NCBI RefSeq assembly: GCF_000010625.1
Contig: NC_010296.1
Span: 2,640,001-2,672,000 of the forward strand
Direction: 5' to 3'
Source: Microcystis aeruginosa NIES-843
GTDB lineage: Bacteria > Cyanobacteriota > Cyanobacteriia > Cyanobacteriales > Microcystaceae
DNA: 32,000 bases
Numbering within the stretch: the first letter of the stretch is position 1; each line of letters opens with the position of its first letter. A model generated the notes under the pieces. That model was given only the letters and a program-made list of their open reading frames with translations, was not told the DNA's origin and made no database searches. Made by a program: the position numbers and the translations under genes. Shown here in pieces: positions 2-26,923 of the stretch.

Positions 2-313
2 CAAGGAGACGATATCCAGCAAGAGGGTGGATACAGTTGTTCTTGGGCAAGAAAAAATCCTGTTACTGCTAAAGAAGGATTATCATTTCTTGCTAATATT
101 AAAGGGCAATGCAGCGAATGTCAACGAGAGGAACGGAAACAAGCGTTTAGAAAAGCTGAACGCTTTGTTACAAATGCTAGTGAGCAAGGTGGTGTCACTC
201 CAGAGGCACAACCGCACTCATTTCAGGATTCTAAACGTAAAACTAAAAACGCCCGTGTAGATATTGAAATTCGCAGTGGTCTTACCTTTATCCCTTCGCC
301 CCAAACAGAATGA
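2..313 (+). CDS. 3' end (103 codons) of an unidentified protein-coding gene entering from the left edge
   Basis: Frame 2 is open from the window edge to TGA at 311-313 (...GGYSCSWARKNPVTAKEGLSFLANIKGQCSECQREERKQAF...VDIEIRSGLTFIPSPQTE*). Its stop overlaps the ATG of the next ORF (gaATGAca, 310-313), a typical translational-coupling junction. I prefer it to the listed frame-3 ORF 27-260, which is low-complexity. No family recognised. Confidence 0.5.
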   Translation, partial: QGDDIQQEGGYSCSWARKNPVTAKEGLSFLANIKGQCSECQREERKQAFRKAERFVTNASEQGGVTPEAQPHSFQDSKRKTKNARVDIEIRSGLTFIPSPQTE

Positions 314-1110
314 CAACGATGCTTAGAAGAGTACAACAATTTTTAGACTCTGGCGATAGTGATAACGCTAGAGAAGAAATTGATAGAGCTTTCGGCAATC
401 TGAGAAGGGTGGATAGTCATGTTAGAGAGTTTGCAGATCTGTTGGCACTGGGATCGATCAAAGCTTCAGAAATCGGCTTAGGGGTATTGGGACGTAAGCT
501 TCTACAGAATGACAGCGAGATTAACAATGAGGTTGTTTGGTTATTTATTGCGTCAATTTTATCTCGCAATAGTATTCCCCCTGATAGTCCATCTAGAATC
601 AGCCTACTTGTTCTTACCGCTTCTGTCAATAGTTGGGAATTACCAATTTTTGCGCTTCTTGCCCCTGCCCTCGACGCTTTTTTTAAAGTTAGTCTTGCGG
701 ACGGAACCCCTTTAATTGCCGAACAAACTTTTGATTTTTTGGCCACTTGGGGAAGAATTTATGCGAAAGCACCTCATGTCAAAACGCAGCTTCAAGAACT
801 TCAATCTCTTAGTAATAATCTATTAGAGCAAGTAGATGACTCAGAGTTAAAAGCTGAATGGTCAGAGGGAATTAATATATTTTTTGAAGAAGCCAGGACA
901 ACCAAATATTCAGATAGTAATGTTTTTTCTGCTGGTGAAGAATTAATTAAAAAAATTTATAATACTCAAAGTTTACAGCGCAATACAGAAGATAAGAATT
1001 TGGCAGAGACAAAAGACAAGTTACTCCGATTAGTCACTTCGTCTCTTGCCACTATTGGAACAGTTCTTGATAGTGATGGAGTCATACTAAATCCGGTTAT
1101 TAAAAACTGA
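310..1110 (+). CDS. hypothetical, apparently all-helical protein (266 aa); its last ~10 codons and stop are supplied by a MITE
   Basis: Long ORF whose ATG overlaps the upstream stop (ATGA). No motif recognised. The C-terminal residues GVILNPVIKN* are encoded by the repeat at 1081-1183, which recurs at 4418-4521. Confidence 0.55.
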   Translation: MTTMLRRVQQFLDSGDSDNAREEIDRAFGNLRRVDSHVREFADLLALGSIKASEIGLGVLGRKLLQNDSEINNEVVWLFIASILSRNSIPPDSPSRISLLVLTASVNSWELPIFALLAPALDAFFKVSLADGTPLIAEQTFDFLATWGRIYAKAPHVKTQLQELQSLSNNLLEQVDDSELKAEWSEGINIFFEEARTTKYSDSNVFSAGEELIKKIYNTQSLQRNTEDKNLAETKDKLLRLVTSSLATIGTVLDSDGVILNPVIKN

Positions 1111-1188: not shown

Positions 1189-1845
1189 CTATATACTTTT
1201 GACTTTTTTATACTGTTCCGTCACGGCGGCATTTAATAGATCATCTTTAAAATCTCTGATTAATTTAATTACTAAATTATAAGTATTGATGTATTCTTCA
1301 TAATCGATAGTTAAATACTTGCCATGAGCAATTTTATTTCTTTGGGTGAGAAGTTGTTCATCAATAGCTTTCTGCCGCAGTTGATAATCACTATCATCAA
1401 TTCCTAGAATAGTACAGATATCAGTGAAAACTTCAAAATTGAGATTAGATTTGGTGTTAATAATATTTTCGTAGGGTATAGAAGCTCTATTTTCTAGGTT
1501 ATCAAGTAAATTTTTGATCATCTCTTTTTGTAACTTAAATTTATTGGTTTTTATTAACTCATTTATAGAACTTCTAGAACCAAGGGCAACGAAACAGTAA
1601 TCCAGTTCATGATAATTTAATTTTCTTAAGGAAACAAACTGCAAATAACATTCTGCTGCATATTTAATAAAACCTTCCCAATGGGCATAGAGAGTGGTTA
1701 TTCCGGCTCTAATTAATACATCTTGCTCAGTTCCTTTTTGTGGAGGAATTTTATTTTTTAAAATACTAAGTTCTTTAATTCGCCATGCCATATCTTCATC
1801 TAAGTTTTTCTGGAGAATTTCGATAGTTCTATTATCTTTACTCAT
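1189..1845 (-). CDS. HEPN-domain protein (RiboL-PSP / MAE_28990-type HEPN-like nuclease), 218 aa
   Basis: An R-x4-H HEPN motif, RNKIAHG, lies at residues 169-175 (nt ~1322-1341). YAHWEGF is present near the N-terminus. The start codon overlaps the stop of the upstream DUF262 gene (TAATG at 1845). The gene is very AT-rich. Confidence 0.75.
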   Translation of the reverse strand: MSKDNRTIEILQKNLDEDMAWRIKELSILKNKIPPQKGTEQDVLIRAGITTLYAHWEGFIKYAAECYLQFVSLRKLNYHELDYCFVALGSRSSINELIKTNKFKLQKEMIKNLLDNLENRASIPYENIINTKSNLNFEVFTDICTILGIDDSDYQLRQKAIDEQLLTQRNKIAHGKYLTIDYEEYINTYNLVIKLIRDFKDDLLNAAVTEQYKKVKSI

Positions 1846-2957
1846 TACTTTTTAAAATATTTTTTGCCAAATTCAATCATTTTGAGCATTCTAGTTCTAG
1901 CTCTCGATCCCGTACCGATGTTATAAATAAAGTCAGATTCTGACCACATTTCCTGAATTTTTGTTCTTAGCAGTTCAATATCTTGAGTAGAGTAATCATC
2001 AATATTTTCTCGTAATCCTGTGGTGATCGCTTCATAAGCAGAATCGAGAAATTTACCCTTAAATCTTGTTCCATCATATTTGGTAAAAGTATCTTCATTC
2101 GTCGCTTGATCAAGCAATAAAAACATTTTAGCGAATTTTTCTTGCTCTAACACACGATCAAAAGTCCTGGAATTGCATAATTCTATCAGATAGTCAGTCA
2201 AATATTCATTAACCTCTTTTTTGTTCAATGATTTTGGATCAAATGTGGGAGAAGACAGGGCAAAATATTTAAGAATTAGTTCCAAGTCGTAGCGTTCTTG
2301 TCTTAATCGCTCGGATAGGGAAATACAATTTTTAAAGTTCTCATTTTCTGCCAAGTCTTCTAACCACTTATATAGGTTTTTATCTAGCATAATCAAAAGA
2401 CAATTACGCACCTCTTGATAAGATAAAAAAGAGCCACCGGTATTTAAACGATCAAAAACTTCAAACTTAGCATTTTTATCCGATTCTTTTTGGATAATCT
2501 GAACCTGTATTTTCGCTCTTTTGAAGTCTATTTTTAGAGATGGGGGCAAATTATACTCTCCTTCCTCTGCACCTTCCCACATAACTCCGTTTAAGCTAGG
2601 TAATAAGTTAGTACCTTGAAGCACCAGTTTCGGTTTTTTCTTAGTTTCATCGTCCTCATCTCTTAAATCGCCAACAAATTCCAAAATTGTTGAAATCCTT
2701 TGTAATCCATCCACCAATTCCCAAACACTATCTTCTTCTCTCTGATAGACAAAAATAGAGGGAATAGGAATTCCTAATAGTATCGATTCTATGAATCGGC
2801 TTTTTTGGGCTATTGTCCAACGAAAATATCTTTGAAAATCTGGATTAATTGTCATTTCTTTGTTATTATAAAGACTAATAATCTCTCCGATTGACATAGG
2901 ATAGTTATCGGTACGAAATTCTTTAGTTTTTGCCTTAACTTCTTCTAATAAATTCAT
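1845..2957 (-). CDS. DUF262 (ParB-like, GmrSD N-terminal type) protein, 370 aa, lacking the DUF1524/His-Me nuclease half
   Basis: Hallmark DUF262 motifs are present: INPDFQRYFRW, SILLGIPIPSIFV, VDGLQRISTI (a DGQQR-type motif) and FEVFDRLNTGGSFLS. There is no C-terminal HNH-like region. The gene forms an operon with the HEPN gene downstream. Confidence 0.85.
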   Translation of the reverse strand: MNLLEEVKAKTKEFRTDNYPMSIGEIISLYNNKEMTINPDFQRYFRWTIAQKSRFIESILLGIPIPSIFVYQREEDSVWELVDGLQRISTILEFVGDLRDEDDETKKKPKLVLQGTNLLPSLNGVMWEGAEEGEYNLPPSLKIDFKRAKIQVQIIQKESDKNAKFEVFDRLNTGGSFLSYQEVRNCLLIMLDKNLYKWLEDLAENENFKNCISLSERLRQERYDLELILKYFALSSPTFDPKSLNKKEVNEYLTDYLIELCNSRTFDRVLEQEKFAKMFLLLDQATNEDTFTKYDGTRFKGKFLDSAYEAITTGLRENIDDYSTQDIELLRTKIQEMWSESDFIYNIGTGSRARTRMLKMIEFGKKYFKK

Positions 2958-3244
2958 CTTATAGCAGTTATCTTAATGGTGAAGTACAAAGTTTTCGTTT
3001 TGGGGAGCCGGTCGTCAGGATTCGATACCAAATTAGGTTACACTTCATCTTTAGAAACAAAGCTGTAATTTTTCTATACTCAGTATAATCTCTCTATTCT
3101 ACTTTTATACCATCAATGATGACTGAATGTGCCAATTTTAAAATGAAACGCGTCAACCTCAAGAGTTGACAGAAAAAGGCTCATCCCCGCAATTGGCACA
3201 AACATCAATTTTCAGGTGGCTAATCTGCAAAGACGCGATTTATC

Positions 3245-3602
3245 GAAAATTTGGGTTAAAACCCCGTCCTAAAAGGACGGCTTTAAGCTACAATGGAAAA
3301 AGCGATAACCAAGCTAAAAACTGAACCTTGACAACAGATAGTAGGGGGTTTTGTTCAGAAAAGAATTCAAATTCGGCCTTGAACGAGTAAAACTTTCTAG
3401 GAAATAAGGTTGAACATGAGATTTTTTCGACTTGTTCAAAGTGGCCGGAGGGCATCCGGACACTCAAAACGGACGTTGAGAAAGAGTCAGACTTAAGCAA
3501 TTAAGCGTTTTTCGGTGAAGCGTCAACCCCATTCAGCGACCACCCTAAAAAAGTGGCGTGGTGAGGAATCGCCGTCCGTTTTACGGCGGCGAGGATGTCA
3601 AG
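3245..3602 (+). mobile_element. ~360-bp internally deleted IS605-family (tnpB-only) derivative retaining both ends (PATE/MITE-like)
   Basis: The left part (cgaaaatttgggt..aaaccccgtc-N-gacggcttta...caATGGAAAAAGC) matches the left end and first four tnpB codons of the full element at 27749. The right end ggaatcgccgtccgttttacggcggcgaggatgtcaag (3565-3602) is identical to 29034-29071. Degenerate TnpB-tail-like coding (KVAGGHPDTQNGR.., SVKRQP) lies between. Confidence 0.55.
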
Positions 3603-4040
3603 TCCCGATATTGCGGTGATGTTAGCTTGGATTGAACAGGCAAAAATCCTCACCAGAGAGTTAAAATAAGCCCTATCTCCGATAATTTTGGCATAAATTA
3701 GCCAAAAGTAGTGCCATTCCATCCCCAAAGATCACCTTTCGTCTCGGCAAATTCTAGATAAATGCGATTTTTCGGTATTCCTAAATAAGCCTCAATTTCT
3801 TGACAAAAATCACTACTCATGCTTTTAGTTTGAGCGGCGGAAATAGAACCAACACTTTTAATCTCCACATAACACACCGGCTCAAAAGTACCAGCAAAAG
3901 TCATTTTTATACCCGATTCTAAAGCTGTCATCACATAGGATTCGGGTTTTCCCAGATGTTTAGCTAATTTAGCCGAAAGACTCTGCAAAAGTTGATTAAC
4001 CGTCTCATCATCGAGGGAGGTGACAGAAGTTTGAATTTTA

Positions 4041-4263
4041 ATTAGGGTTTGCTGAAAAAGCTTTTCCTGGGGGCAGGGTGTGGGGTGTGGGGTGTGGGGT
4101 GTGGGGTTTTACCAGTTTTGAGGTGGTCAACTACCTAATTTTCAGGGAAAAAGTACCTGAATTTTCCCCCGATCCCCGCAATGGCTGGCACTTTTTGAGG
4201 GGAAAAAAGTCCAAAAGTCTTATCCAACAAGGTTTTTAGATTTATTCAGCAGACCCTAATTAG
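4041..4263. mobile_element. ~220-bp MITE (TIR TAATTAGGGTTTGCTGAA / TTCAGCAGACCCTAATTA) with an internal heptamer array
   Basis: The 18-19-bp terminal inverted repeats are read directly. A related copy with the same ends and a different internal heptamer tract lies at 29103-29342. Confidence 0.7.
4069..4106 (+). repeat. (GGGGTGT)n heptamer tandem repeat, G-quadruplex-type tract
   Basis: gggggcagggtgtggggtgtggggtgtggggtgtgggg: at least four GGGG runs separated by TGT. Confidence 0.9.
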
Positions 4264-4417
4264 AGGCATAGAAAAAATCTCAGAAATATTTTTATATAAT
4301 ATAACAGTTTTGATAGCAATCACAGATATTCTTTTGCTTCAGAAGGCTTCAATCATCCAATCCTTGGGGAATTATGAATTATGAATTGGGGAGTGGGAAG
4401 TGGGAAAAAAACTGAAT

Positions 4418-4521
4418 GTCATACTAAATCCTGTTATTAAAAACTGATTATTTATTTCCCCTTTTGCCTCTTGCATGAGTGCCTCGTCTCATAACTAGCC
4501 TGTACTCAACGGATTTAGTAT
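4418..4521. mobile_element. ~100-bp MITE, copy 2 (same family as 1081-1183)
   Basis: gtcatactaaatccTgttattaaaaactgattatttatttccccttttgcctcttgc...tactcaacggatttagtat. Confidence 0.6.
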
Positions 4522-4569
4522 CAGCATTCATCCCATCGCTAAAAGCGAGGGAATTCTGCTGACACTAAG

Positions 4570-7500
4570 TTAAAAAGAATACACGGCTGTTTTGATATTT
4601 TGGTAGTTATCATCTAGATATGATTCTAGGAGAATAATCGCAGTAATTCTTCTAGTCATCTCGCTTACTTCCTGCACTTCTGCGATAGTTAATCCCCGTC
4701 CTAATAATTTTTCCTCGCGATAACTTAGCCATTTTTTAATAACTTGATAACCCCCGATGGTATATTCCCACACCCGGGATGGTATATTTTGCCAATAGGC
4801 TCGATCATTGAGATAAATATCATAGGTGGTCGTTCCTAATAATTTTCGCATTTCTGGGCTAATTACGCTCATTTCTGCGGTTGTATATTGTCTGGCGATC
4901 GCTTTTCCTTTACCCGGCATTGTCACACCATTTTTACCCCCATGTCCCCAACCGACGTTAATAATTAAATCCCCCTTATCTGGGTTTAAATTTCCCCCAT
5001 CAGTGCAGGAAATCAAGGCGATTTTTTGCAGTGCAGGGGTCGGTTTTTTGGTGACTCCTATAACGGGGTTTTCTGTGTCTAAAAGAGAGGCGATCGCTTG
5101 TCCTAGTTGGGCAGATTTAATTAATAATTCTTGGCTATTGGGAAGGGGAATTCTTGGGAAGTCTTGACGAATACCGTCGGCATTTTCCCGAAGATACAAG
5201 GGAGAGTACCCAATCGCTAACGAGTGCAGCCAAATTAAGGAGGCATTCTCGATATTTTCATCAATATTATTAATACCCAGTTGATTTAAGTATTGACGAG
5301 ATTTTTCCGAAAGATTGGCTTTTATTGAAGGACTATTAAAGTTACTGGAATCGAATAATTTTCCTTGAGTATTATCTTCTGTATTCACCTTCTCTGAATT
5401 TTGACGTAATCGTATAGGAAAGTGATAAGCATGACCTCTAATAAAGTCAAAGTCTCCTAAACAGTTAGTAAAATAAAATGGTATTCCTTCGGGAGAGGCA
5501 ACACCAGCAGGACGACTGACTAAAAAGGAATTACCTTGAAATTGATGAATAAATAGCGAAGGTCTAGACTCATTCCAAAGCGGTCTAATTTGAGTATAAT
5601 AACACCACTTAACCTCATAGGGTCTGAGCAGATAAGGTAACAGCATTTGAGGATTAAATTTTTTGCGTAACTTTAAGACTTTATCTCTGGCTTTTTTGGC
5701 ATCAAATCGAGCTGCATTTTTAGTTAAACCTGTATTAAGTGATGCTAATTCTTCCCATGAAACATTTTGATCAAAGTATTTACTTATCCTTTCCGAAAGA
5801 ATAGTTTTATCACTATCAATAAAACTATAGCCTCGATTCTCTTTATAACCTGTAATTGGAGCTTCATCAGATAAATCTGTTAACTTTGGCCATGCTAAAT
5901 AGTGAGAGGAAACATCGGAGGGACGGAAAGAATAACGATTAGATTGTTCTGGGTTAGAGACTTGATACAAAGCATCAAAATCTTGATTATTTAAACTATC
6001 TAATAACTGTTCTCGTTTAGCAACTCCCCAGAAATGGCGAAAATAGACATCAACATTTTTATTCCTTACTTCCTTTCTTACCATTAGTCCGATAGTTGTC
6101 CCGACTCGAATCCCTTCCTTATTGTATTGAGTAGAAAAAACACTAGGATCTGGATTACCTTCAGGGGTTAACTTTCCCGTTTCGCGACTATCCCCATTGA
6201 GACAATCAAACCAAAGGCGATCAAATTCTTGTAAAAATCTTTGCCGCATCACCACAAAAGAAGGATCACCGAGATAGGAAAAATTAGAAATATAACAAAC
6301 AACTCCTTTACCGGTATTTTCTGAAATACATCTTTCTGCTAAACGAAAAAAGCGCACATATAACTCATCCAAATTAAACTTTTTAATCCCCCAATCGGAG
6401 ATTAAACCCTGTTTATACACTTCCACTAAACCTGCTTCTTCCGCGGGACTGGTTCCAGCAAAAGCATTGTAGGGAGGATTACCGAGAATAACTAAAATCG
6501 GTTTACCGCGCTTAACTTCATCGGCTGCCTCTCGTTCCTTATTTAACTCTGGAAAACTTAATTGTAGCTGTTGAATTTTCTGTTTACTTTCCTCATCGGG
6601 AGGTTGCCAACCAGTTAAAGCATTAGTCAGATAAATCCCCACCCGTTCACTATCTTCTATTAAAGGTACACCCAAACTTTGCAGGAATAAACCTAATTGT
6701 AGATGAGCGACGACAAAAGGAGCGGTTAAAATCTCGAAACCGAAAATTCTTTCTATGGCTGCTTTTTTCACCAAAGCCATGGCTAAAGCACCCGCCCCAT
6801 TTTCCTGTAAAGTATCGGTAATATAGCGCAAAACCTCGACTAAATAAGCACCGGTGCCACAGCAAGGATCGAGAATATAAACATCGGGATTAGCTAAACC
6901 GTCCTCAATATTTAATTCTTCTCGTAAAACTCGATCGACTCGCGCTACCATATAGCGAACAATTTCCGGAGGAGTGTACCAAACTCCCAATTCTTTGCGT
7001 AAATCAGGATCAAAAGCTTGCAAAAATGGTTCATAGAAATACTGTACCGCTTGTCCCTCATCGAATTGACGAAAAAATTCCTCTCGTCGCACTCGATTTA
7101 AAGCTGCACCGGTCCAATTCAAAACTTCTACTAATCCCAAAGACTTTAACTTACTCGGTGCGGCGATCTGCTCGAATAGGATCGCTAACATGGGAACATG
7201 GAGATGGTGGGCTGCGGATTTCCAATCGAACTTATCCTCTTTATCCTCGCGATTGAGGTTTTGCTTGTGCCATAATACCCAAGCAGAAAATAAACCATAA
7301 AAGAGGGTTTGCACGAGGGTAGAACGGAAAAATTTATTTCCCTGTTCCCGTTCAAATTTGATACCGAGGGCATTTTCTAAAGCTTGACGGATATTGGCCA
7401 GAGCGGGAAGATCGGAATGATGTTCTAAGCGTGCTTTTGCGTCGCGCGCATAGGAAGCAAGAAACCAAGCAACATCGGCTGGTGAGGTGATAGGAGCCGC

Positions 7501-8034
7501 CTGTAAAAGCACTCTCTTTAGGTATTCTAAGAGGCTATCACCGTGTTCGGCGGCAAATTTGGATGGATTTGAGGTTTTTAGCCAAAACTCGGCTTCTGAC
7601 GGGGCTAAACTATAGGCTTCTAATTCCACCGGTTGACCTTGGCTATTGCGACCAATGAGCAGAAAATCGCGATAATTGGTGACTAATACTTGACCGTATT
7701 TTTGCCAGTATTTTTGTACTTGCTCGCTGGCGGCGATTTTTTTGATATCTTCTTTGGTTCCCTTAATCTCGATCGCACCTCTTTCGGGAAAAATCGCCGT
7801 AAAAGGTTCTAATTCTTGATTTTTTTGGAATTGATCGACGTTAAAAAGTCCCCCGTCCGGCAATCCCGCACCCTGATTTCTGAGGTTGATAATGCAGCGC
7901 ACTCGCGGTTTTAGGGTTTTACCGATTTCGTTAAGGAGAGTTTCGAGAGTGCCGTAGTAGGAGGTTTCTTTTACGGCTGCTTGGGAGGAGTGGATTTCGT
8001 GCAGGTTGCGAAAATAATTGACGAGGGGATTCAT
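4570..8034 (-). CDS. single-chain restriction-modification enzyme (type IIG / type ISP-like): N-terminal PD-(D/E)xK-like region, gamma-class N6-adenine methyltransferase, and ISP-type C-terminal specificity domain; 1154 aa
   Basis: Motif I DPCCGTGAYL (nt 6841-6870). Motif IV NPPY (nt 6469-6480). C-terminal VWEYTIGGYQVIKKWLSYRE tail typical of type ISP specificity domains. N-terminal LPD60GG...E89-I-K91 (nt 7753-7863). No helicase domain. Confidence 0.8.
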   Translation of the reverse strand: MNPLVNYFRNLHEIHSSQAAVKETSYYGTLETLLNEIGKTLKPRVRCIINLRNQGAGLPDGGLFNVDQFQKNQELEPFTAIFPERGAIEIKGTKEDIKKIAASEQVQKYWQKYGQVLVTNYRDFLLIGRNSQGQPVELEAYSLAPSEAEFWLKTSNPSKFAAEHGDSLLEYLKRVLLQAAPITSPADVAWFLASYARDAKARLEHHSDLPALANIRQALENALGIKFEREQGNKFFRSTLVQTLFYGLFSAWVLWHKQNLNREDKEDKFDWKSAAHHLHVPMLAILFEQIAAPSKLKSLGLVEVLNWTGAALNRVRREEFFRQFDEGQAVQYFYEPFLQAFDPDLRKELGVWYTPPEIVRYMVARVDRVLREELNIEDGLANPDVYILDPCCGTGAYLVEVLRYITDTLQENGAGALAMALVKKAAIERIFGFEILTAPFVVAHLQLGLFLQSLGVPLIEDSERVGIYLTNALTGWQPPDEESKQKIQQLQLSFPELNKEREAADEVKRGKPILVILGNPPYNAFAGTSPAEEAGLVEVYKQGLISDWGIKKFNLDELYVRFFRLAERCISENTGKGVVCYISNFSYLGDPSFVVMRQRFLQEFDRLWFDCLNGDSRETGKLTPEGNPDPSVFSTQYNKEGIRVGTTIGLMVRKEVRNKNVDVYFRHFWGVAKREQLLDSLNNQDFDALYQVSNPEQSNRYSFRPSDVSSHYLAWPKLTDLSDEAPITGYKENRGYSFIDSDKTILSERISKYFDQNVSWEELASLNTGLTKNAARFDAKKARDKVLKLRKKFNPQMLLPYLLRPYEVKWCYYTQIRPLWNESRPSLFIHQFQGNSFLVSRPAGVASPEGIPFYFTNCLGDFDFIRGHAYHFPIRLRQNSEKVNTEDNTQGKLFDSSNFNSPSIKANLSEKSRQYLNQLGINNIDENIENASLIWLHSLAIGYSPLYLRENADGIRQDFPRIPLPNSQELLIKSAQLGQAIASLLDTENPVIGVTKKPTPALQKIALISCTDGGNLNPDKGDLIINVGWGHGGKNGVTMPGKGKAIARQYTTAEMSVISPEMRKLLGTTTYDIYLNDRAYWQNIPSRVWEYTIGGYQVIKKWLSYREEKLLGRGLTIAEVQEVSEMTRRITAIILLESYLDDNYQNIKTAVYSF

Positions 8035-8124
8035 AAAAACTGTGGTCTAGATAATTAAGGTTAATCTTATAAAATTTTGTTACAAGATTGAACATTTCTG
8101 CTTTGAACGGTTACAATTCCCATT

Positions 8125-8241
8125 GTAGGTAGCCGGTTATATTTAAATTAAAAATCGATTTTAGGTTCGATCCCCCCTGCCCCCCTTATTAAGGGGGGTG
8201 CTGATAGGCGGGGGCTCTGATAATTTTTAACGCCTACCTAC
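8125..8241. repeat. MITE-like unit in the divergent intergenic region (imperfect TIR GTAGGTAGCCGGTTA / TAACGCCTACCTAC) with a G/C-rich central palindrome
   Basis: The inverted ends are read directly. The centre is ccccccttattaagggggg. A second copy at ~12599-12715 lies inside the duplicated block and differs mainly in the central palindrome. Confidence 0.35.
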
Positions 8242-8279
8242 TTAATTATTGATCTCTCTTGTTTTGGAGGAAATTAAAG

Positions 8280-10814
8280 ATGGCTGATTTTCTTGATTTC
8301 GTTGTTCGTGACAGTTTGCTCAATCCTCTTACTATCACGCTTTTATCTACAGATTTAGAACAAATTGACGAAGGAACAAGACATAGCATTGATGCTCAGA
8401 TTGATGACACAGATCCTCTTGGGCGTAAAGGTGCGATTTTAGCTGAGTCGGCGCAGGAAAATGACCTAAAGACAGGAAATTCCCAGTCTGTATCGCTTAA
8501 TACTAGCCAATCTCTAAGTTCTCTGGTTTCAAGTAACTTACAACACATTGCTGGGTGTAACTGCTCATTCTGCGCTCTTCCTCCATTTGATCCGAATCTA
8601 GTTAAGAATCAACCGAAACAGTCAGCCGCCACTGTATCAGCCGCTTTAAATCTATCTCAAACTTTCTCCCTTAACAGCTTAGCAGGAGCAAATCACACAA
8701 TTTATCTGGATTTTAACGGGCATACTACTTCTGGTACTTCTTGGAATACAGCCTATAATAAGGCTAATATTGTTACTCCTGCTTTCGATTTTGATGGCAA
8801 TACAGGGTCTTTTAGTAATGCTGAACTAGAAAGAATCCAGTATATTTGGCAGCGCGTGGCGGAGGATTTCATCCCCTTTAATGTTAATGTCACAACTCAA
8901 GCTCCAACGGATATCAATGATTTGATTAAAAGCGGTACTGGTGACACTCGCTGGGGTGTGCGTGTTGCTATTGGTGGGAGCAGTTATGACTGGTTCGGTG
9001 CTGGAGCAGGAGGAGTTGCCTACGTTGGTTCTTTTAACTGGAATAGTGATACTCCCACCTTTGTTTTTGATGACCAACTAGGTAATGGTAACGAAAAATA
9101 TACGGCTGAAGCTATTTCCCATGAAGTAGGACATACTCTCGGACTATCCCATGATGGACGAATTACCCCCAGTGAGGGATACTACGCAGGACATGGTAGT
9201 GGGGATACTGGCTGGGCACCAATTATGGGAGTAGGATACTATCAGAACCTATCCCAGTGGAGTAAAGGGGAGTATGCTTCCGCTAATAATACTCAAGATG
9301 ATTTGCAAATTATTACCACCCAAAATGGTTTTGGCTACCGAACCGATGATACTGGCAATACAATTGCTACTGCGAAAGCATTAACGGTTTCTGGTGCTTC
9401 TGTTAGTGGTAATGGTATCATTGAGCGCAATACGGATGTAGATTTCTATAGTTTTACTACAGGTGCGGGTGCGATTAGTTTGACGGTGAATCCATTTAAT
9501 CGTGGACCAAATTTAGATATTTTGGCAGAGTTATACAATTCTGCGGGAACTCTAATTGCATCATCTAATCCGACGGATTTATTATCAGCAAATATTACAG
9601 CAAATGTCGCAGCCGGAACCTATTACCTCAAAATTGACGGTATTGGGAAAGGTAATCCTCTTACTACTGGTTACACAGATTACGGTAGTTTGGGGCAGTA
9701 TTCGATTAGTGGTTCAGTTTCTAGTCCTTCTAAAGATATTTTCATCCGTAGTCCTCAATATGCAGGATTATTAACCTATAACGGTTCGGGCTTTCAACCT
9801 AACTCGATTCAGTATGACTGGATCGGCGGCTGGAAACTTGGTTCAGGGGATAAACATTTGGCGGGTGACTTCGATGGTAATGGTAAAGATGACGTTTTCA
9901 TCCGTAGTCCTCAATATGCAGGATTATTAACCTATAACGGTTCGGGCTTTCAACCTAACTCGATTCAGTATGACTGGATCGGCGGCTGGAAACTTGGTTC
10001 AGGGGATAAACATTTGGCGGGTGACTTCGATGGTAATGGTAAAGATGACGTTTTCATCCGTAGTCCTCAATATGCAGGATTATTAACCTATAACGGTTCG
10101 GGCTTTCAACCTAACTCGATTCAGTATGACTGGATCGGCGGCTGGAAACTCGGTTCAGGGGATAAACATTTGGCGGGTGACTTCGATGGTAATGGTAAAG
10201 ATGACGTTTTCATCCGTAGTCCTCAATATGCAGGATTATTAACCTATAACGGTTCGGGCTTTCAACCTAACTCGATTCAGTATGACTGGATCGGCGGCTG
10301 GAAACTCGGTTCAGGAGATCAACACTTTGTGGGTGACTTCGATGGTAATGGTAAAGATGACGTTTTCATCCGTAGTCCTCAATATGCAGGATTATTAACC
10401 TATAACGGTTCGGGCTTTCAACCTAACTCGATTCAGTATGACTGGATCGGCGGCTGGAAACTCGGTTCAGGAGATCAACACTTTGTGGGTGACTTCGATG
10501 GTAATGGTAAAGATGACGTTTTCATCCGTAGTCCTCAATATGCAGGATTATTAACCTATAACGGTTCGGGCTTTCAACCTAACTCGATTCAGTATGACTG
10601 GATCGGCGGCTGGAAACTCGGTTCAGGAGATCAACACTTTGTGGGTGATTTTAACAACGATGGCAAAGATGATGTTTTCATCCGTAGTCCTCAATATGCA
10701 GGATTATTAACCTATAACGGTTCGGGCTTTCAATCTAACTCGATTCAGTATGACTGGATCGGCGGCTGGAAACTCGGTTCAGGAGATCAACACTTTGTGG
10801 GTGATTTTGCCTAG
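8280..10814 (+). CDS. metzincin-type zinc metalloprotease, paralog A: ~130-aa leader/propeptide, catalytic domain, PPC (pre-peptidase C-terminal) domain, 7 FG-GAP/VCBS-like repeats of 52 aa
   Basis: HEVGHTLGLSHDG matches HExxHxxGxxH(D), and APIMGVG is a candidate Met-turn. The PPC-like segment reads DVDFYSF...GTYYLKIDG. The seven repeats each carry GDFDGNGKDD. ATG 8280 has GGAGGA 8 nt upstream; the listed ORF starts at an upstream TTG (8259). Confidence 0.8.
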   Translation: MADFLDFVVRDSLLNPLTITLLSTDLEQIDEGTRHSIDAQIDDTDPLGRKGAILAESAQENDLKTGNSQSVSLNTSQSLSSLVSSNLQHIAGCNCSFCALPPFDPNLVKNQPKQSAATVSAALNLSQTFSLNSLAGANHTIYLDFNGHTTSGTSWNTAYNKANIVTPAFDFDGNTGSFSNAELERIQYIWQRVAEDFIPFNVNVTTQAPTDINDLIKSGTGDTRWGVRVAIGGSSYDWFGAGAGGVAYVGSFNWNSDTPTFVFDDQLGNGNEKYTAEAISHEVGHTLGLSHDGRITPSEGYYAGHGSGDTGWAPIMGVGYYQNLSQWSKGEYASANNTQDDLQIITTQNGFGYRTDDTGNTIATAKALTVSGASVSGNGIIERNTDVDFYSFTTGAGAISLTVNPFNRGPNLDILAELYNSAGTLIASSNPTDLLSANITANVAAGTYYLKIDGIGKGNPLTTGYTDYGSLGQYSISGSVSSPSKDIFIRSPQYAGLLTYNGSGFQPNSIQYDWIGGWKLGSGDKHLAGDFDGNGKDDVFIRSPQYAGLLTYNGSGFQPNSIQYDWIGGWKLGSGDKHLAGDFDGNGKDDVFIRSPQYAGLLTYNGSGFQPNSIQYDWIGGWKLGSGDKHLAGDFDGNGKDDVFIRSPQYAGLLTYNGSGFQPNSIQYDWIGGWKLGSGDQHFVGDFDGNGKDDVFIRSPQYAGLLTYNGSGFQPNSIQYDWIGGWKLGSGDQHFVGDFDGNGKDDVFIRSPQYAGLLTYNGSGFQPNSIQYDWIGGWKLGSGDQHFVGDFNNDGKDDVFIRSPQYAGLLTYNGSGFQSNSIQYDWIGGWKLGSGDQHFVGDFA
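9741..10814 (+). repeat. coding tandem array, 7 x 156 bp (52 aa); units 1-2 are 100% identical
   Basis: ttcatccgtagtcctcaatatgcagg recurs at 9741, 9897 and onward with a 156-bp period. Two subtypes are visible: GDKHLAGDFDGNGKD (units 1-3) and GDQHFVGDF.. (units 4-7). Confidence 0.95.
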
Positions 10815-11753: not shown

Positions 11754-11812
11754 CGGGGTTGACGGAATACTGGATTAGGCATAATTGAGGAAAAACTCGC
11801 ACAATTTCGGTT

Positions 11813-12003
11813 TCAGACCTCTGCGGCTTTTTCTGGCTCAATCTCGGTCTCCAATTCTTGACGTAATTCTTCTAGAGAAGTGGTAGCAGCTGTCTGAGAT
11901 AATCTTTCGAGTTTCCCAGTTCTACTTGTTCTAAAACCTGAAGAAAATGTTCTTGTGCTTGGGTATAGCTAGTATAGGTGGTGGGGATGGGCAGCATAGC
12001 CAT
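11813..12003 (-). pseudogene. Phd/YefM antitoxin gene copy with a 142-bp internal (frameshifting) deletion
   Basis: 11767-12033 aligns with 16309-16719 except that 16453-16594 is missing. The junction is gataatctttc|gagtttccc. Confidence 0.8.
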
Positions 12004-12026
12004 TAATCAACTCCGCAGTCAAAAAA

Positions 12027-12509
12027 TTAATCATTGGATGGATTTGAGGTTTTCAGCCAAAACTCGGCTTCTGACGGGGCTAAACTATAGGCTTCTAATT
12101 CCACCGGTTGACCTTGGCTATTGCGACCAATGAGCAGAAAATCGCAATAATTGCTGACTAATACTTGACCGTATTTTTGCCAGTATTTTTGTACTTGTTC
12201 GCTGGCGGCGATTTTTTTGACATCTTCTTTGGTTCCCTTAATCTCGATCGCACCTCTTTCGGGAAAAATCGCCGTAAAAGGTTCTAATTCTTGATTTTTT
12301 TGGAATTGATCGACGTTAAAAAGTCCCCCATCCGGCAATCCCGCACCCTGATTTCTGAGGTTGATAATGCAGCGGACTCGCGGTTTTAGGGTTTTACCGA
12401 TTTCGTTGAGGAGAGTTTCGAGAGTGCCGTAGTAGGAGGTTTCTTTTACTGCTGCTTGGGAGGAGTGGATTTCTTGCAGGTTGCGAAAATAATTAACGAG
12501 GGGATTCAT
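12027..12509 (-). pseudogene. truncated duplicate of the RM gene: N-terminal 158 aa (PD-ExK-like region only) plus 2 novel codons, ORF intact
   Basis: There are 4 substitutions (H12Q, I97V, T119S, R122C) over 158 aa relative to 4570-8034. Homology ends at 12034, where the sequence switches to the yefM upstream region. The promoter-side sequence is almost identical to that of the full gene. Confidence 0.8.
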
Positions 12510-12753
12510 AAAAACTGTGGTCTAGATAATTAAGGTTAATCTTATAAAATTTTGTTACAAGATTGAACATTTCTGCTTTGAACGGTTACAATTCCCATTG
12601 TAGGTAGCCGGTTATATTTAAATTAAAAATCGATTTTAGGTTCGATCCCCCCTACCCCCCTTAATAAGGGGGGCAGGGGAGGCGGGGGCTCTGATAATTT
12701 TTAACGCCTACCTACTTAATTATTGATCTCTCTTGTTTTGGAGGAAATTAAAG

Positions 12754-15396
12754 ATGGCTGATTTTCTTGATTTCGTTGTTCGTGACAGTTTGCTCAATCC
12801 TCTTACTATCACGCTTTTATCTACAGATTTAGAACAAATTGACGAAGGAACAAGACATAGCATTGATGCTCAGATTGATGACACAGATCCTCTTGGGCGT
12901 AAAGGTGCGATTTTAGCTGAGTCGGCGCAGGAAAATGACCTAAAGACAGGAAATTCCCAGTCTGTATCGCTTAATACTAGCCAATCTCTAAGTTCTCTGG
13001 TTTCAAGTAACTTACAACACATTGCTGGGTGTAACTGCTCATTCTGCGCTCTTCCTCCATTTGATCCGAATCTAGTTAAGAATCAACCGAAACAGTCAGC
13101 CGCCACTGTATCAGCCGCTTTAAATCTATCTCAAACTTTCTCCCTTAACAGCTTAGCAGGAGCAAATCACACAATTTATCTGGATTTTAACGGGCATACT
13201 ACTTCTGGTACTTCTTGGAATACAGCCTATAATAAGGCTAATATTGTTACTCCTGCTTTCGATTTTGATGGCAATACAGGGTCTTTTAGTAATGCTGAAC
13301 TAGAAAGAATCCAGTATATTTGGCAGCGCGTGGCGGAGGATTTCATCCCCTTTAATGTTAATGTCACAACTCAAGCTCCAACGAATATCAATGATTTGAT
13401 TAAAAGTGGTAGTGGTGACACTCGCTGGGGTGTGCGTGTTGCTATTGGTGGGAGCAGTTATGACTGGTTCGGTGCTGGAGCAGGAGGAGTTGCCTACGTT
13501 GGTTCTTTTAACTGGAATAGTGATACTCCCACCTTTGTTTTTGATGACCAACTAGGTAATGGTAACGAAAAATATACGGCTGAAGCTATTTCCCATGAAG
13601 TAGGACATACTCTCGGACTATCCCATGATGGACGAATTACCCCCAGTGAGGGATACTACGCAGGACATGGTAGTGGGGATACTGGCTGGGCACCAATTAT
13701 GGGAGTAGGATACTATCAGAACCTATCCCAGTGGAGTAAAGGGGAGTATGCTTCCGCTAATAATACTCAAGATGATTTGCAAATTATTACCACCCAAAAT
13801 GGTTTTGGCTACCGAACCGATGATACTGGTAGTACAATTGCTACTGCGAAAGCATTAACGGTTTCTGGTGCTTCTGTTAGTGGTAATGGTATCATTGAGC
13901 GCAATACGGATGTAGATTTCTATAGTTTTACTACAGGTGCGGGTGCGATTAGTTTGACGGTGAATCCATTTAATCGTGGACCAAATTTAGATATTTTGGC
14001 AGAGTTATACAATTCTGCGGGAACTCTAATTGCATCATCTAATCCGACGGATTTATTATCAGCAAATATTACAGCAAATGTCGCAGCCGGAACCTATTAC
14101 CTCAAAATTGACGGTATTGGGAAAGGTAATCCTCTTACTACTGGTTACACAGATTACGGTAGTTTGGGGCAGTATTCGATTAGTGGTAGTATTAGTAACT
14201 CATATGGAAACTTGACAGTAACAAACCAATTTATCGGAGATTTTGCCTCTTGGTCTGCTAACTCAAACGTAAGGGTATTAACGGGTGATTTTAACGGTGA
14301 TGGTAAAACAGATGTGTCCCTAGTCAATCAGTCCGCAGGATGGAGTACATTGCCCGTAGCTTTCTCTCAAGGAAATGGGAATTTTTCCGTAACAAACCAA
14401 TTTATCGGAGATTTTGCCTCTTGGTCTGCTAACTCAAACGTAAGGGTATTAACGGGTGATTTTAACGGTGATGGTAAAACAGATGTGTCCCTAGTCAATC
14501 AGTCCGCAGGATGGAGTACATTGCCCGTAGCTTTCTCTCAAGGAAATGGGAATTTTTCCGTAACAAACCAATTTATCGGAGATTTCGCCTCTTGGTCTGC
14601 TAACTCAAACGTAAGGGTATTGACGGGTGATTTTAACGGTGATGGCAAAACAGACGTATCTCTAGTCAATCAGTCCGCAGGATGGAGTACATTGCCCGTA
14701 GCTTTCTCTCAGGGAAATGGGAGTTTTTCCGTAACAAACCAATTTATCGGAGATTTTGCCTCTTGGTCTGCTAACTCAAACGTAAGGGTATTAACGGGTG
14801 ATTTTAACGGTGATGGTAAAACAGATGTGTCCCTAGTCAATAAATCCGTAGGATGGAATACATTGCCAGTAGCTTTCTCTCAAGGAAATGGGAGTTTTTC
14901 TGTAACAAACCAATTTATCGGAGATTTTGCTTCTTGGGCTGCTAATCCGGGTGTTGACGCACTAACAGGTGATTTTAACGGCGATGGTAAAACGGATGTG
15001 GCCCTAATCAATAAATCCGCAGGATGGAATACATTGCCAGTAGCTTTCTCTCAAGGAAATGGGAGTTTTTCTGTAACAAACCAATTTATCGGAGATTTTG
15101 CTTCTTGGGCTGCCAACCCGAACGTAAGGGTACGAACGGGTGATTTTAACGGTGATGGTAAAACGGATGTGGCCCTAGTCAATCAGTCCGCAGGATGGAA
15201 TACATTGCCAGTAGCTTTCTCTCAAGGAAATGGGAGTTTTTCTGTAACAAACCAATTTATCGGAGATTTTGCTTCTTGGGCTGCTAACCCGAACGTTAAC
15301 GTACTAACAGGTAATTTTAATGGTGATAGTAAAACGGATGTGGCTCTAGTCAATCAGTCCGCAGGATGGAATACATTGCCTGTGGCTTTTTTCTAG
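12754..15396 (+). CDS. metzincin-type zinc metalloprotease, paralog B: same leader, catalytic and PPC domains as A, but 7 unrelated FG-GAP/VCBS-like repeats of 57 aa
   Basis: The first ~478 codons differ from paralog A at 3 residues. After ...GSLGQYSISGS the sequence switches to repeats carrying LTGDFNGDGKTDV. Confidence 0.8.
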   Translation: MADFLDFVVRDSLLNPLTITLLSTDLEQIDEGTRHSIDAQIDDTDPLGRKGAILAESAQENDLKTGNSQSVSLNTSQSLSSLVSSNLQHIAGCNCSFCALPPFDPNLVKNQPKQSAATVSAALNLSQTFSLNSLAGANHTIYLDFNGHTTSGTSWNTAYNKANIVTPAFDFDGNTGSFSNAELERIQYIWQRVAEDFIPFNVNVTTQAPTNINDLIKSGSGDTRWGVRVAIGGSSYDWFGAGAGGVAYVGSFNWNSDTPTFVFDDQLGNGNEKYTAEAISHEVGHTLGLSHDGRITPSEGYYAGHGSGDTGWAPIMGVGYYQNLSQWSKGEYASANNTQDDLQIITTQNGFGYRTDDTGSTIATAKALTVSGASVSGNGIIERNTDVDFYSFTTGAGAISLTVNPFNRGPNLDILAELYNSAGTLIASSNPTDLLSANITANVAAGTYYLKIDGIGKGNPLTTGYTDYGSLGQYSISGSISNSYGNLTVTNQFIGDFASWSANSNVRVLTGDFNGDGKTDVSLVNQSAGWSTLPVAFSQGNGNFSVTNQFIGDFASWSANSNVRVLTGDFNGDGKTDVSLVNQSAGWSTLPVAFSQGNGNFSVTNQFIGDFASWSANSNVRVLTGDFNGDGKTDVSLVNQSAGWSTLPVAFSQGNGSFSVTNQFIGDFASWSANSNVRVLTGDFNGDGKTDVSLVNKSVGWNTLPVAFSQGNGSFSVTNQFIGDFASWAANPGVDALTGDFNGDGKTDVALINKSAGWNTLPVAFSQGNGSFSVTNQFIGDFASWAANPNVRVRTGDFNGDGKTDVALVNQSAGWNTLPVAFSQGNGSFSVTNQFIGDFASWAANPNVNVLTGNFNGDSKTDVALVNQSAGWNTLPVAFF
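14218..15396 (+). repeat. coding tandem array, 7 x 171 bp (57 aa); units 1-2 are 100% identical
   Basis: gtaacaaaccaatttatcggagatttt recurs at 14218, 14389 and onward. Sequence grades from the SWSANSNVRVL/VSLVNQSAGWST type (units 1-3) to the SWAANPNV/VALVNQSAGWNT type (units 5-7). Confidence 0.95.
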
Positions 15397-16356: not shown

Positions 16357-16689
16357 TCAGACTTCTGCGGCTTTTTCTTGCTCAATCTCGGTCTCCAATT
16401 CTTGACGTAATTCTTCTAGAGAAGTGGTGGCAGCTGTCTGAGATAATCTTTCTTGTGACCAATTTAAGGACTGAAAAAGTCGTTGAGCGTTAGCTGGAGA
16501 GCGCAAAAGATAAACTTCTTCTAATAAAGCGGATAATTCGTCAGCAGCAATCAAGGCCACATCATGATGACCCTGACGTTGGACAATAACGATCGAGTTT
16601 CCCAGTTCTACTTGTTCTAAAACCTGAAGAAAATGTTCCTGTGCTTGGGTATAGCTAGTATAGGTGGTGGGGATGGGCAGCATAGCCAT
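16357..16689 (-). CDS. Phd/YefM-family antitoxin, apparently orphan
   Basis: The N-terminal YTQAQEHFLQVLEQVELGNSIVIVQRQGHHDVALIAADELSALLE is Phd/YefM-like. No toxin ORF lies in the 170 bp downstream. Confidence 0.75.
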   Translation of the reverse strand: MAMLPIPTTYTSYTQAQEHFLQVLEQVELGNSIVIVQRQGHHDVALIAADELSALLEEVYLLRSPANAQRLFQSLNWSQERLSQTAATTSLEELRQELETEIEQEKAAEV

Positions 16690-24530: not shown

Positions 24531-25098
24531 ACAAAAACTCCTTGAATAACTAAACAGCACAACAACATAAGGGACTTGCGCTTTGATAATGTACCATTTA
24601 TGGCTGGTCTGATTCTTCTACAGAGCGAGTGTCTGGCTGGGATATTATTCCTACGCAGGTCCCTAAAATTAAATTATAATCGTTCACACCTCCCCTACCC
24701 AATACCGTTCGGTTGAGCAAACCAGCCCCCACCCCCCTCAGTCCCCACCCCTCTCTTATCTCCCCTTTCAGGGGAGACGATAGAATTACCCCTTAAGGGG
24801 GATTTAGGGGGTGGGATTGACATCCTCACCGCCCTAAAAGGGACGGTGATTCCTAGACCTCACGATCTAGGTTTCTGCTTCTTAGCAGTTGCCTTCACAG
24901 ACTTGCTCTGTTCGGGTCTGACACTCGCGACCCAGACTGATACCGCAAGCCCTGCGGCCAAAATGTTTTTACTGGCGTTAACATCCCTTTCATGGCAAGT
25001 TCCACATTCAGGACACTCCCATTCTCGGACACTTAACGGCATTTTCTCAACGATATGCCCACAATTATTGCACCGTTTTGAACTAGGAAACCATCTAT

Positions 25099-25188
25099 AG
25101 CGTTTCTCGCATCTGTGCGGCACAGTTAAACCTTTGCTGATTAAGCTGTTCAGGCTCGGGAATGTACCTTTTGTGAATCAGAAATGCT
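25099..25188. mobile_element. ~90-bp insertion (MITE-like, TIR AGCGTTTCT / AGAAATGCT) in the tnpB remnant
   Basis: It interrupts the sequence that is continuous in the full copy (ccatctat|ctatttcg). It also supplies the artificial start of listed ORF 24860-25123. Confidence 0.5.
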
Positions 25189-25300
25189 ATATCTATTTCC
25201 CGATAGTTTCTCCCATACCAACGGCATTTATAGGCTCATTGTCGAGTGATTTCTCCCCAACTAACATCTGATATAGCTTGAGCTAGTTTCGGGTTTTTTA

Positions 25301-25523
25301 CAGGGTGAGAGCATCTCAAACGCTATTGACAATTGGCCAATTTTGTCATCCGCGTGGGCATTTCAAGTGATACCAGTCAATCAGAATAGTTACGAAATCG
25401 ACCCAAATGGGTCGATTTTTGCTTAACAATTGAGATGGCAAATTCTCCTCAAATATGCCTGAATCGTGGGCAAGCAACTCACATAAAGTTCATTTTGTCA
25501 AGGATTGTTAAGATGCGCTTACC
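25301..25523. mobile_element. 223-bp MITE (imperfect ~29-bp TIR GGTGAGAGCATCTCAAACGCTATTGACAA / TTGTCAAGGATTGTTAAGATGCGCTTACC) in the tnpB remnant
   Basis: It is flanked by a 13-bp direct repeat ttcgggtttttta (25288-25300 and 25524-25536) that occurs once in the intact tnpB copy. The GAGCATCTCA core is shared with the MITE at 29630-29750. Confidence 0.65.
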
Positions 25524-25713
25524 TTCGGGTTTTTTACCAGGTCTTTTACCGCTAAATTTTCAACTACAATCGTTTAGTTTTCACGAACTAATTGAGTGGT
25601 TAGCTTATGTAAATGGTCTTTTCTGCTATCGGTGATTCGAGCCTGAATCTTAGCTACTTTGATTCTTGCTTTTTCCCGATTTTTTGACCCTTTCTGTGTT
25701 CGAGAATCAACAA

Positions 25714-25863
25714 TTACCGTCGCCTCATAAACAAGTTGTAGACAACGCCAATCAGCACCAAAACCAAAAGCAGGTGGATTAAGCTGCCGCCAATGTTAAT
25801 GGAGAATCCTAACAACCAGAGGATGAAAAGTATAACAACGGCAGTCCAAACGAGATCAAACAT
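25714..25863 (-). CDS. lmo0937-family small membrane protein (49 aa), absent from the supplied ORF track
   Basis: MFDLVWTAVVILFILWLLGFSINIGGSLIHLLLVLVLIGVVYNLFMRRR*. AGGAGG lies 5 nt upstream of the ATG. It has two TM helices and an RRR tail as in the lmo0937/DUF5670-type family, and sits next to csbD genes. Confidence 0.65.
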   Translation of the reverse strand: MFDLVWTAVVILFILWLLGFSINIGGSLIHLLLVLVLIGVVYNLFMRRR

Positions 25864-25913
25864 ATTTCCCTCCTTGATTTAGAGAAAAGTAATGAAAATT
25901 CAGTCATCGATCC

Positions 25914-26393: not shown

Positions 26394-26682
26394 TTTAACT
26401 CCAAAAAAGAATTTGATGAATCGATGATACATGGATGATGAACAACTACTGTCTAGACCCTTTCGAGAAAGATTTTTCTAGTCTTTGACGGCGTAAGTTT
26501 ACCGAGGGAGAGATCTTCGACTTCTTTGAGAAGCTAGATATCTGGTAATATTGGGTTTATTTACGCCGCCTTGTCCTAGTATTTCACCTGTCTCGAAAGA
26601 AGCCATTTTTTGAGGAAGAGTTCCGATGAAATCTGGGTTTCAATCATTTGTCTGAATGGCGGTTGCCGTGACAAATGACCTA

Positions 26683-26865: not shown

Positions 26866-26923
26866 GATGCTCTCCTTATTGAATTTGTTGGATTTGAGAA
26901 CTGCTTACCTAAGTTGAGCTAAC

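Follow-up and report, generated by a model that had tools for sequence, protein, structure and literature searches.

A DUF262–HEPN gene pair of Microcystis aeruginosa NIES-843, probably a divergent relative of the PD-T4-2 phage defense system

The stretch of the Microcystis aeruginosa NIES-843 genome analyzed here (contig NC_010296.1, positions 2,640,001 to 2,672,000; 32,000 nucleotides [nt], hereafter the window) carries two adjoining genes on its minus strand. The upstream one, gene A, encodes a DUF262/ParB-like protein and the downstream one, gene B, a stand-alone HEPN protein. The pair resembles PD-T4-2, a two-gene system of Escherichia coli that protects against phage T4, and is probably a divergent and under-annotated relative of the known PD-T4-2-type pair, not a new category of system. 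The features on which the argument turns are listed below, with positions counted from the first letter of the window and open reading frames abbreviated as ORFs.

1845..2957, minus strand: gene A, DUF262/ParB-like, 370 amino acids (aa), from the ORF
1189..1845, minus strand: gene B, stand-alone HEPN, 218 aa, from the ORF
1843..1847, minus strand: TAATG stop/start overlap of the two genes (TAA at 1847-1845, ATG at 1845-1843, 1 base in common)
2697..2711, minus strand: DGLQR (D83-R87 of gene A), ParB/DUF262 nucleotide pocket motif, from reading of the sequence
1321..1341, minus strand: RNKIAHG (R169-G175 of gene B), HEPN Rx4H catalytic motif, from reading of the sequence
1672..1689, minus strand: YAHWEG (Y53-G58 of gene B), second HEPN motif, followed by K61, from invariant columns of the HEPN alignment A1
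2958..3243, minus strand: upstream intergenic region of the operon, from blastn synteny

That the two genes overlap by TAATG at 1845 had been proposed in an initial annotation of this DNA, and both the ORFs and the sequence bear it out; the arrangement is consistent with translational coupling. Both genes are also AT-rich, as had been claimed, with GC fractions of 0.332 (DUF262 gene) and 0.295 (HEPN gene) against 0.423 for the window and 0.47-0.49 for gltB and other neighboring core-type genes. The product of gene A has an exact-sequence match in BAG02722.1 (WP_012265917.1) and that of gene B in BAG02721.1 (WP_012265916.1; UniProt B0JJS9), all from M. aeruginosa. NCBI labels the HEPN protein a "MAE_28990/MAE_18760 family HEPN-like nuclease". 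We suspect, as a guess, that BAG02721.1 is the product of locus MAE_28990 itself, the founder of PF18737. The intergenic region upstream of the operon is 96-99% conserved in most other Microcystis strains (blastn), and the operon promoter presumably lies inside it. A scan for promoters and terminators gave nothing above chance, its one sigma-70-like site (minus strand, 3162-3135) being no more than chance expects.

The sole Pfam match of gene A is to PF03235 (GmrSD_N/DUF262; 2.8e-26, residues 28-188). Neither PF07510/DUF1524 nor any other nuclease or HNH domain is found by Pfam at E up to 1, in agreement with the earlier description of a 370-aa protein that lacks a DUF1524/His-Me domain. The full DUF262 motif set that had been ascribed to this protein can likewise be read directly from the sequence, with FQR at residues 41-43, DGLQR at 83-87, and LNTGG at 171-175. 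D83, G84, and R87 are present in 202/202 homologs aligned at those columns and the glutamine in 201/202, and the run V82-R87 is invariant in the DUF262 alignment A3. The DUF262/ParB-like domain takes up the N-terminal part of the protein (residues ~20-190) and a conserved helical domain the C-terminal part (~190-370), the latter corresponding to what Li et al. 2025 call ParBDB. In the AlphaFold2 (AF2) model, which has a predicted local distance difference test score (pLDDT) of 90.9, the C-terminal 180 residues are purely helical; they are strongly conserved, with G348, G350, and R356 among the invariant positions. The best fold matches of this model in the Protein Data Bank (PDB) are BrxU (7p9k, E = 1e-4), SspE (7drr), and ParB CTPases. 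The C-terminal half agrees with the ParB-associated DNA-binding domain that has been ascribed to NsnA and to the middle domain of SspE (PMC12065111). Among PADLOC profiles, gene A is matched near full length by both NsnA (3.1e-59) and PD-T4-2_A (1.8e-34). NCBIfam holds no match for the product of either gene, and a PDB sequence search returned nothing meaningful for gene A or for the HEPN profile.

Gene B had been described as a stand-alone HEPN protein with an Rx4H motif, and the profiles agree. PF18735 (HEPN_RiboL-PSP) aligns with it end to end (2.4e-42, 145.5 bits; residues 17-205, profile positions 1-191 of 191), PF18737 (HEPN_MAE_28990) matches at 1.2e-29, and RNKIAHG stands at residues 169-175. 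The protein is a full-length, high-scoring member of the RiboL-PSP/MAE_28990 family of HEPN proteins, with no material difference from the rest, and is the predicted RNase effector. R169, A173, H174, and G175 are invariant in alignment A1, which holds 40 homologs, and across 187 loci R169 and H174 are found in 180/180 homologs aligned at those columns; conservation of the motif residues had been put forward as a check on the prediction. The residues of the second motif, YAHWEG, occur in 178-185 of 187 homologs, and together with K61 they are probably part of the active site or of a dimer interface. The AF2 model of gene B is all helical (pLDDT 92.5), and among its fold matches the only real one is to an MAE_28990-like HEPN protein encoded by a phage (template modeling score 0.66-0.69). 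A HMMER search of 1.84 billion representatives with the HEPN profile yielded 2,852 clusters (50% identity), of which 972 reach E <= 1e-30. The best 150 of the 2,852 are all stand-alone proteins of 210-272 aa, and no fusion of DUF262 and HEPN in a single polypeptide exists among them. The partner of gene B is by Pfam a DUF262 protein and not an MNT protein, which places the pair outside the HEPN-MNT type II/VII toxin-antitoxin systems.

The association of the two genes is much wider than Microcystis. A search pattern taken from alignment A1, YAHWEGF[IV], identified 548 confirmed relatives of the HEPN protein among 185,579 species, each represented by one genome. In the best 80 of these 548 loci, chosen by HEPN alone, a DUF262 gene lies directly upstream on the same strand in every case (80/80). 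The reverse test used 80 metagenome loci chosen by DUF262 alone (at least 41% identity), 78 of which had room downstream, and a HEPN gene follows directly in 77 of the 78. The pairing is therefore near-obligate and far beyond chance, and the co-occurrence of the families, another point that the initial annotation had left to be checked, is seen from both sides. An overlap of the stop and start codons, of 4 nt (ATGA) or 1 nt (TAATG), is found in 59/80 genome loci and in 67/106 metagenome or viral loci, and nearly all of the remaining spacings are 20 nt or less. Pairwise identities of A and of B are closely correlated (r = 0.87, Mantel p = 0.001, 73 complete pairs), and the correlation is still 0.70 among pairs below 60% identity; the two genes therefore move and diverge together. 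Hosts of the genome loci include cyanobacteria, Chloroflexota, Alpha-, Beta-, and Gammaproteobacteria, Deltaproteobacteria-type lineages, and Bacteroidota, as well as Acidobacteriota, Planctomycetota, Verrucomicrobiota, Ignavibacteria and Chlorobi, Gemmatimonadota, and Coriobacteriia; the pair is patchily distributed across more than ten phyla.

Viral contigs in IMG/VR carry the HEPN pair in 29 loci, with DUF262 relatives at least 31% identical to the window protein. More distant DUF262 relatives on viral contigs are followed by NsnB and NsnC of the Menshen system, with no HEPN gene. In two of these viral loci (L193, 5872-9075; L197, 671-4332) the DUF262 protein is ~29-31% identical to that of the window and the Menshen system is complete, L197 having an extended NsnA of 573 aa. 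Prophage-like elements therefore carry both wirings of the sensor. Loci of an intermediate kind, with a divergent HEPN, are seen as well: the HEPN protein of L198 passes PF18737 and PF18735, and that of L191 stays below the PF18735 threshold (23 vs 28.4 bits). These arrangements support a picture of a single ParB-DUF262 sensor module with two kinds of output, a HEPN RNase coupled to it directly or other nucleases reached by way of an ABC ATPase.

An operon link between ParB and HEPN genes was tabulated in 2013 by Anantharaman et al. (PMC3710099), in computational work only, and one of their descriptions fits this locus. The initial annotation went on to state that no phenotype had been shown for the pairing, which the published record of PD-T4-2 contradicts. 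PD-T4-2 was found by functional selection on T4 and is given in Table S1 of Vassallo et al. 2022 (PMC9519451) as "DUF262, HEPN", validated. The validation of this two-gene system used a low-copy plasmid and E. coli K-12 as host, and deletion of the system from the native strain ECOR65 led to higher T4 plaquing (PMC9519451). HHpred results in the same paper assign PD-T4-2A to PF03235 and list PF18735 (97.8%) and PF18737 (96.9%) as the top two matches of PD-T4-2B. The strain table holds four point mutants, one of them pCV1-PD-T4-2 (PD-T4-2B H127A), and the text reports that four site-directed mutants of key conserved residues lost protection, the residues being essential (PMC9519451). The mutagenic primer gives the motif of PD-T4-2B as RNAAAH, and His127 is the equivalent of the Rx4H histidine, H174 in the window protein. 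A test by mutation of the HEPN active site, which the initial annotation had proposed, has thus already been published for the E. coli system as H127A (PMC9519451). Two reviews (PMC10952713, PMC12065111) place PD-T4-2 among the DUF262 systems without DUF1524 and regard these as largely uncharacterized; our literature search on the mechanism of PD-T4-2, or of DUF262 with HEPN, found no mechanistic study.

By exact match to the published lambda-red primer, PD-T4-2 is present in 17 of 5,426 complete E. coli genomes. In the one that we took for comparison (L081; NZ_CP013025.1, 3549901-3557950) it occupies 3968-5603 of the locus, flanked by psu (polarity suppression protein) and the integrase gene of a P4-like satellite integrated at ssrA, where satellites typically carry defense cargo. 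RefSeq labels gene B of this copy a "HEPN domain-containing protein".

The two systems are built alike. Each consists of two same-strand genes in a variable or mobile context, of which A encodes a DUF262 protein of ~365 aa with DGLQR and without DUF1524, and B, directly downstream, a stand-alone HEPN protein that passes PF18735 and has RNxxAH. PD-T4-2A and the window DUF262 protein are 27% identical over 247 aa (E = 3e-24), and the PD-T4-2_A profile covers residues 23-362 of window A with its positions 40-355 of 363. The NsnA model outscores PD-T4-2_A for window A and for E. coli PD-T4-2A itself, in each case near 1e-59. E. coli PD-T4-2B passes PF18735 with 31.4 bits against a gathering threshold of 28.4 (profile positions 7-181 of 191). 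The differences lie chiefly in the HEPN half: window B has 218 aa as opposed to 167 in PD-T4-2B, belongs to a separate and much larger branch, and has YAHWEG where PD-T4-2B has ELCGWxE. In addition, the E. coli genes are 4 nt apart whereas the window genes overlap, and the host of the window pair is a cyanobacterium. The window pair therefore shares its architecture and both of its Pfam families with PD-T4-2, on a separate and much larger long-HEPN branch that the present PADLOC profiles would leave unlabeled.

Two other groups of systems bear comparison. Menshen (NsnABC; Millman 2022; Li et al. 2025) supplies the best PADLOC match of window A, as given above, and NsnA has the same layout of a ParB-DUF262 domain with a helical C-terminal part. 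Li et al. 2025 model NsnA as the sensor of DNA in a pathway with an RNase effector at its end. Unlike Menshen, the window pair has neither the ABC ATPase NsnB nor NsnC (an inactive PIN domain with a nuclease), and the sensor-like protein stands directly beside the HEPN protein; downstream of gene A there is only the HEPN gene, then a MITE-like repeat (see below) and a convergent ORF, with no NsnB or NsnC. GmrSD, BrxU, and SspE share with window A the N-terminal DUF262 ParB-like fold and the DGxQR pocket, and BrxU and SspE are its best matches among solved structures. In these enzymes the DUF262 domain is reported to bind or hydrolyze nucleoside triphosphates (NTPs) and cutting is ascribed to DUF1524 (PMC10952713). 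Window A, in contrast, has no DUF1524 His-Me domain, its effector would be a separate predicted RNase, and its motif is DGLQR where theirs is DGQQR. The initial annotation had called this a GmrSD-like sensor in which the DNA-nuclease half appeared to have been replaced by a predicted RNase. This is a fair account of the architecture, but as a history replacement would be conjecture, and the closest relatives of window A are not GmrSD, BrxU, or SspE but PD-T4-2A and Menshen NsnA, both of which lack DUF1524.

Taken together, these comparisons lead us to regard the window pair as probably a PD-T4-2-type two-gene anti-phage defense operon with the HEPN RNase as its effector. A role in defense is further favored by the low GC content, by the adjoining type IIG restriction-modification gene described below, by the occurrence of the pair on the 29 IMG/VR contigs, and by the psu-integrase hotspot in which the E. 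coli system sits.

Several observations weigh against this reading, most of them on the HEPN side. Window HEPN and PD-T4-2B give no BLASTP alignment. Profile-profile comparison (hhalign) of A1 with A2, an alignment of 23 PD-T4-2B homologs, joins only 11 columns around LLxxRNxxAH (E = 0.043), and none of the three PADLOC PD-T4-2_B models matches window HEPN at E up to 1. A Foldseek search of the PDB with the HEPN model returned only non-specific helical bundles, all at E > 0.5, and because no solved structure matches significantly, support for the HEPN fold comes from the sequence profile. Since the two HEPN halves are so dissimilar, transfer of the PD-T4-2 phenotype to the window pair rests on shared Pfam families and architecture; the phenotype evidence itself is that of E. 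coli PD-T4-2, which lies outside the window clade, and would carry over by analogy. Finally, in two metagenome-assembled genomes (MAGs; L018 and L067) the DUF262 gene is cut down, what is left being in one case a remnant of 71 aa and in the other case the N-terminal half, and the HEPN ORF is intact. It follows that B may not need A to be tolerated, or that these copies are decaying.

The cut-down genes lie at ~4777-5612 in L018 and at 4438-5648 in L067. Three further MAG loci (L006, L017, and L046) show a single frameshift in the DUF262 gene, perhaps through assembly errors at low coverage. A direct link between the two HEPN branches, sought by BLASTP, profile-sequence, and profile-profile comparison, was given up, the catalytic motif alone being alignable; for that reason the connection between the branches is drawn from the fact that both pass PF18735 and from the HHpred results of the PD-T4-2 authors.

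How such an operon might work can be sketched, and for the sensor-and-switch steps the sketch is tentative. The product of gene A would combine two domains, one ParB-like (DUF262) that binds nucleotides or acts as an NTPase and one helical that binds DNA, and would serve as both sensor and switch. It would recognize invading DNA, or some feature of it, and undergo an NTP-dependent change of state. The HEPN RNase would be made in fixed ratio with A through the overlapping stop and start codons, and A would either restrain or activate it. Once active, B would cut RNA at its Rx4H site, translation would stop, and with it the multiplication of the phage. The sensor role of A and its ligand, NTP hydrolysis, contact between A and B, the RNA target, and an outcome in cell death are all inferred by analogy with the literature on SspE, BrxU, and ParB.

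Some of the same observations could be read in terms of a toxin-antitoxin-like addiction or abortive-infection module, in which HEPN is a constitutive toxin, the DUF262 protein its antitoxin, and any stress that depletes A sets B free, with no sensing of DNA. HEPN RNases often serve as toxins and have a partner gene upstream (PMC3710099), the gene overlap implies a fixed stoichiometry, and tight co-divergence of A and B is what interacting partners display. Yet A is a 370-aa protein of two domains with an invariant nucleotide-pocket motif, which is not expected of a mere neutralizer, and its relatives SspE, BrxU, and NsnA are sensor or NTPase modules. The two MAG loci in which A is largely lost beside an intact HEPN ORF would also be unexpected if A were needed to survive B, although this is weak evidence. 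We consider this explanation unlikely. Some proteins of the ParB/Srx fold cut DNA, and one might accordingly see the main effector in the DUF262 protein, as a ParB-fold DNase that attacks phage DNA, with HEPN as an accessory (a second nuclease, a non-catalytic regulator, or an RNA-binding subunit). Anantharaman et al. (PMC3710099) indeed termed the partner a "ParB nuclease", and Joint Genome Institute (JGI) annotation credits relatives with "ParB-like and HNH nuclease" domains. Against this, cutting in GmrSD, BrxU, and SspE is assigned to DUF1524 and NTP to DUF262 (PMC10952713), and no HNH or DUF1524 domain is detectable in window A. Because the Rx4H motif is invariant and the equivalent histidine is reported as essential in PD-T4-2, B would moreover be catalytic and not an accessory, all of which makes a DUF262 effector quite improbable. 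A housekeeping role apart from defense, such as RNA processing coupled to chromosome or plasmid partition, could appeal to the action of ParB-fold proteins in partition and to the conservation of the pair at a single locus across at least 12 genomes or metagenome contigs of Microcystis, but is very hard to square with a patchy distribution (548 relatives among 185,579 species genomes, more than ten phyla), with low GC, viral contigs, and restriction-modification and MITE neighbors, and with the defense phenotype demonstrated for the E. coli relative PD-T4-2 (PMC9519451).

If the pair is indeed a PD-T4-2-type defense operon, the most immediate consequence concerns annotation. The DUF262–HEPN pair is probably under-called as a defense system because the PADLOC PD-T4-2_B profiles miss its HEPN half. 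One exact peptide pattern alone recovered the HEPN protein of the pair in 548 species genomes, and a profile built from A1 would mend this gap. PD-T4-2-type systems have a phenotype without a mechanism, and the clade described here offers diverse and compact A-B pairs with invariant motifs, good material for working out how HEPN RNases come under the control of ParB-fold NTPases. In Microcystis, a bloom-forming genus known for large defense repertoires, the pair is one more likely defense locus. A further possibility, which we regard as doubtful, is that the long-HEPN branch constitutes a mechanistically distinct system in which an NTP-gated DNA clamp or switch of the ParB type directly licenses a HEPN RNase. 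Were this so, the sensing of DNA would lead to RNA cleavage with neither a second messenger nor an ATPase transducer in between, and the trigger could be something other than the hypermodified DNA of T-even phages.

The initial annotation had placed the pair in a defense-island-like setting, amid miniature inverted-repeat transposable elements (MITEs) and remnants of restriction-modification and toxin-antitoxin systems. The following features of the window agree with that description or adjoin the pair.

4570..8034: type IIG restriction-modification gene, 1154 aa (Pfam N6_Mtase and Type_ISP_C; PADLOC REase_MTase_IIG, 4.9e-88)
1084-1183 and 4421-4521: ~100-bp MITE-like units with 12-bp terminal inverted repeats ATACTAAATCCG ... 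CGGATTTAGTAT, the copies ~85-96% alike
16357..16689: Phd/YefM-type antitoxin gene, with no obvious toxin ORF called beside it
3698-3988: MIF/tautomerase-family ORF, 96 aa (PF01187, 5.9e-22), TTG start

The ~100-bp unit looks like a MITE because of its 12-bp terminal inverted repeats. The first copy starts inside the 3' end of the ORF at 310..1110 and stops 5 nt short of the HEPN stop codon, and the second sits immediately 3' of the type IIG gene, so that the two bracket 3.3 kb with the HEPN, DUF262, and MIF-like genes. An origin of these ~100-bp direct repeats (1081-1183 and 4418-4521) as the marks of an integrated cassette was considered and set aside; each has its own 12-bp inverted repeats, and two MITE copies are the simpler account. 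In two Microcystis loci (L004 and L084) similarity to the window starts exactly at 1181, which is therefore a recombination breakpoint. Between the DUF262 and MIF-like genes lies a 358-bp stretch (3244-3601) that the other Microcystis loci covering this point lack; in L001, L003, and L082, among others, position 3602 follows 3243 without a gap. An exact copy of its final 39 nt is found at 29034-29072, and the stretch is probably a strain-specific MITE insertion. In most Microcystis loci the MIF-like ORF is in synteny with the defense pair. Given its TTG start and an alignment that begins only at profile position 21, this ORF may be cut short at the N-terminus or have a wrongly called start.

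Among the Microcystis loci fetched, the type IIG gene occurs only in L086. Its first ~160 codons and the region upstream are duplicated ~4.47 kb away at 95-98% identity (7559-8472 and 12034-12946), and the duplication has left an ORF at 12027..12509 that encodes a 160-aa N-terminal fragment of the type IIG protein. Upstream of this fragment, at 11767-12040, lies a duplicate of ~270 bp from the region of the Phd/YefM gene (92-98% identity). Each copy of the 4.47-kb duplication is followed by one of two paralogous genes (8259-10814 and 12733-15396) whose products (851 and 887 aa) combine reprolysin-like metallopeptidase domains with FG-GAP repeats. At its end each of these genes has seven tandem DNA repeats, 156 bp long in the first gene and 171 bp in the second, with 66-100% identity. 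Farther along the window, long inverted repeats at 24817-25706 and 28495-29070, with arms of 46-183 nt that are 81-91% complementary, enclose ~2.8-4.1 kb with ORFs of 172, 100, and 347 aa; the set as a whole (24817-29070) may represent an inverted duplication or a composite mobile element.

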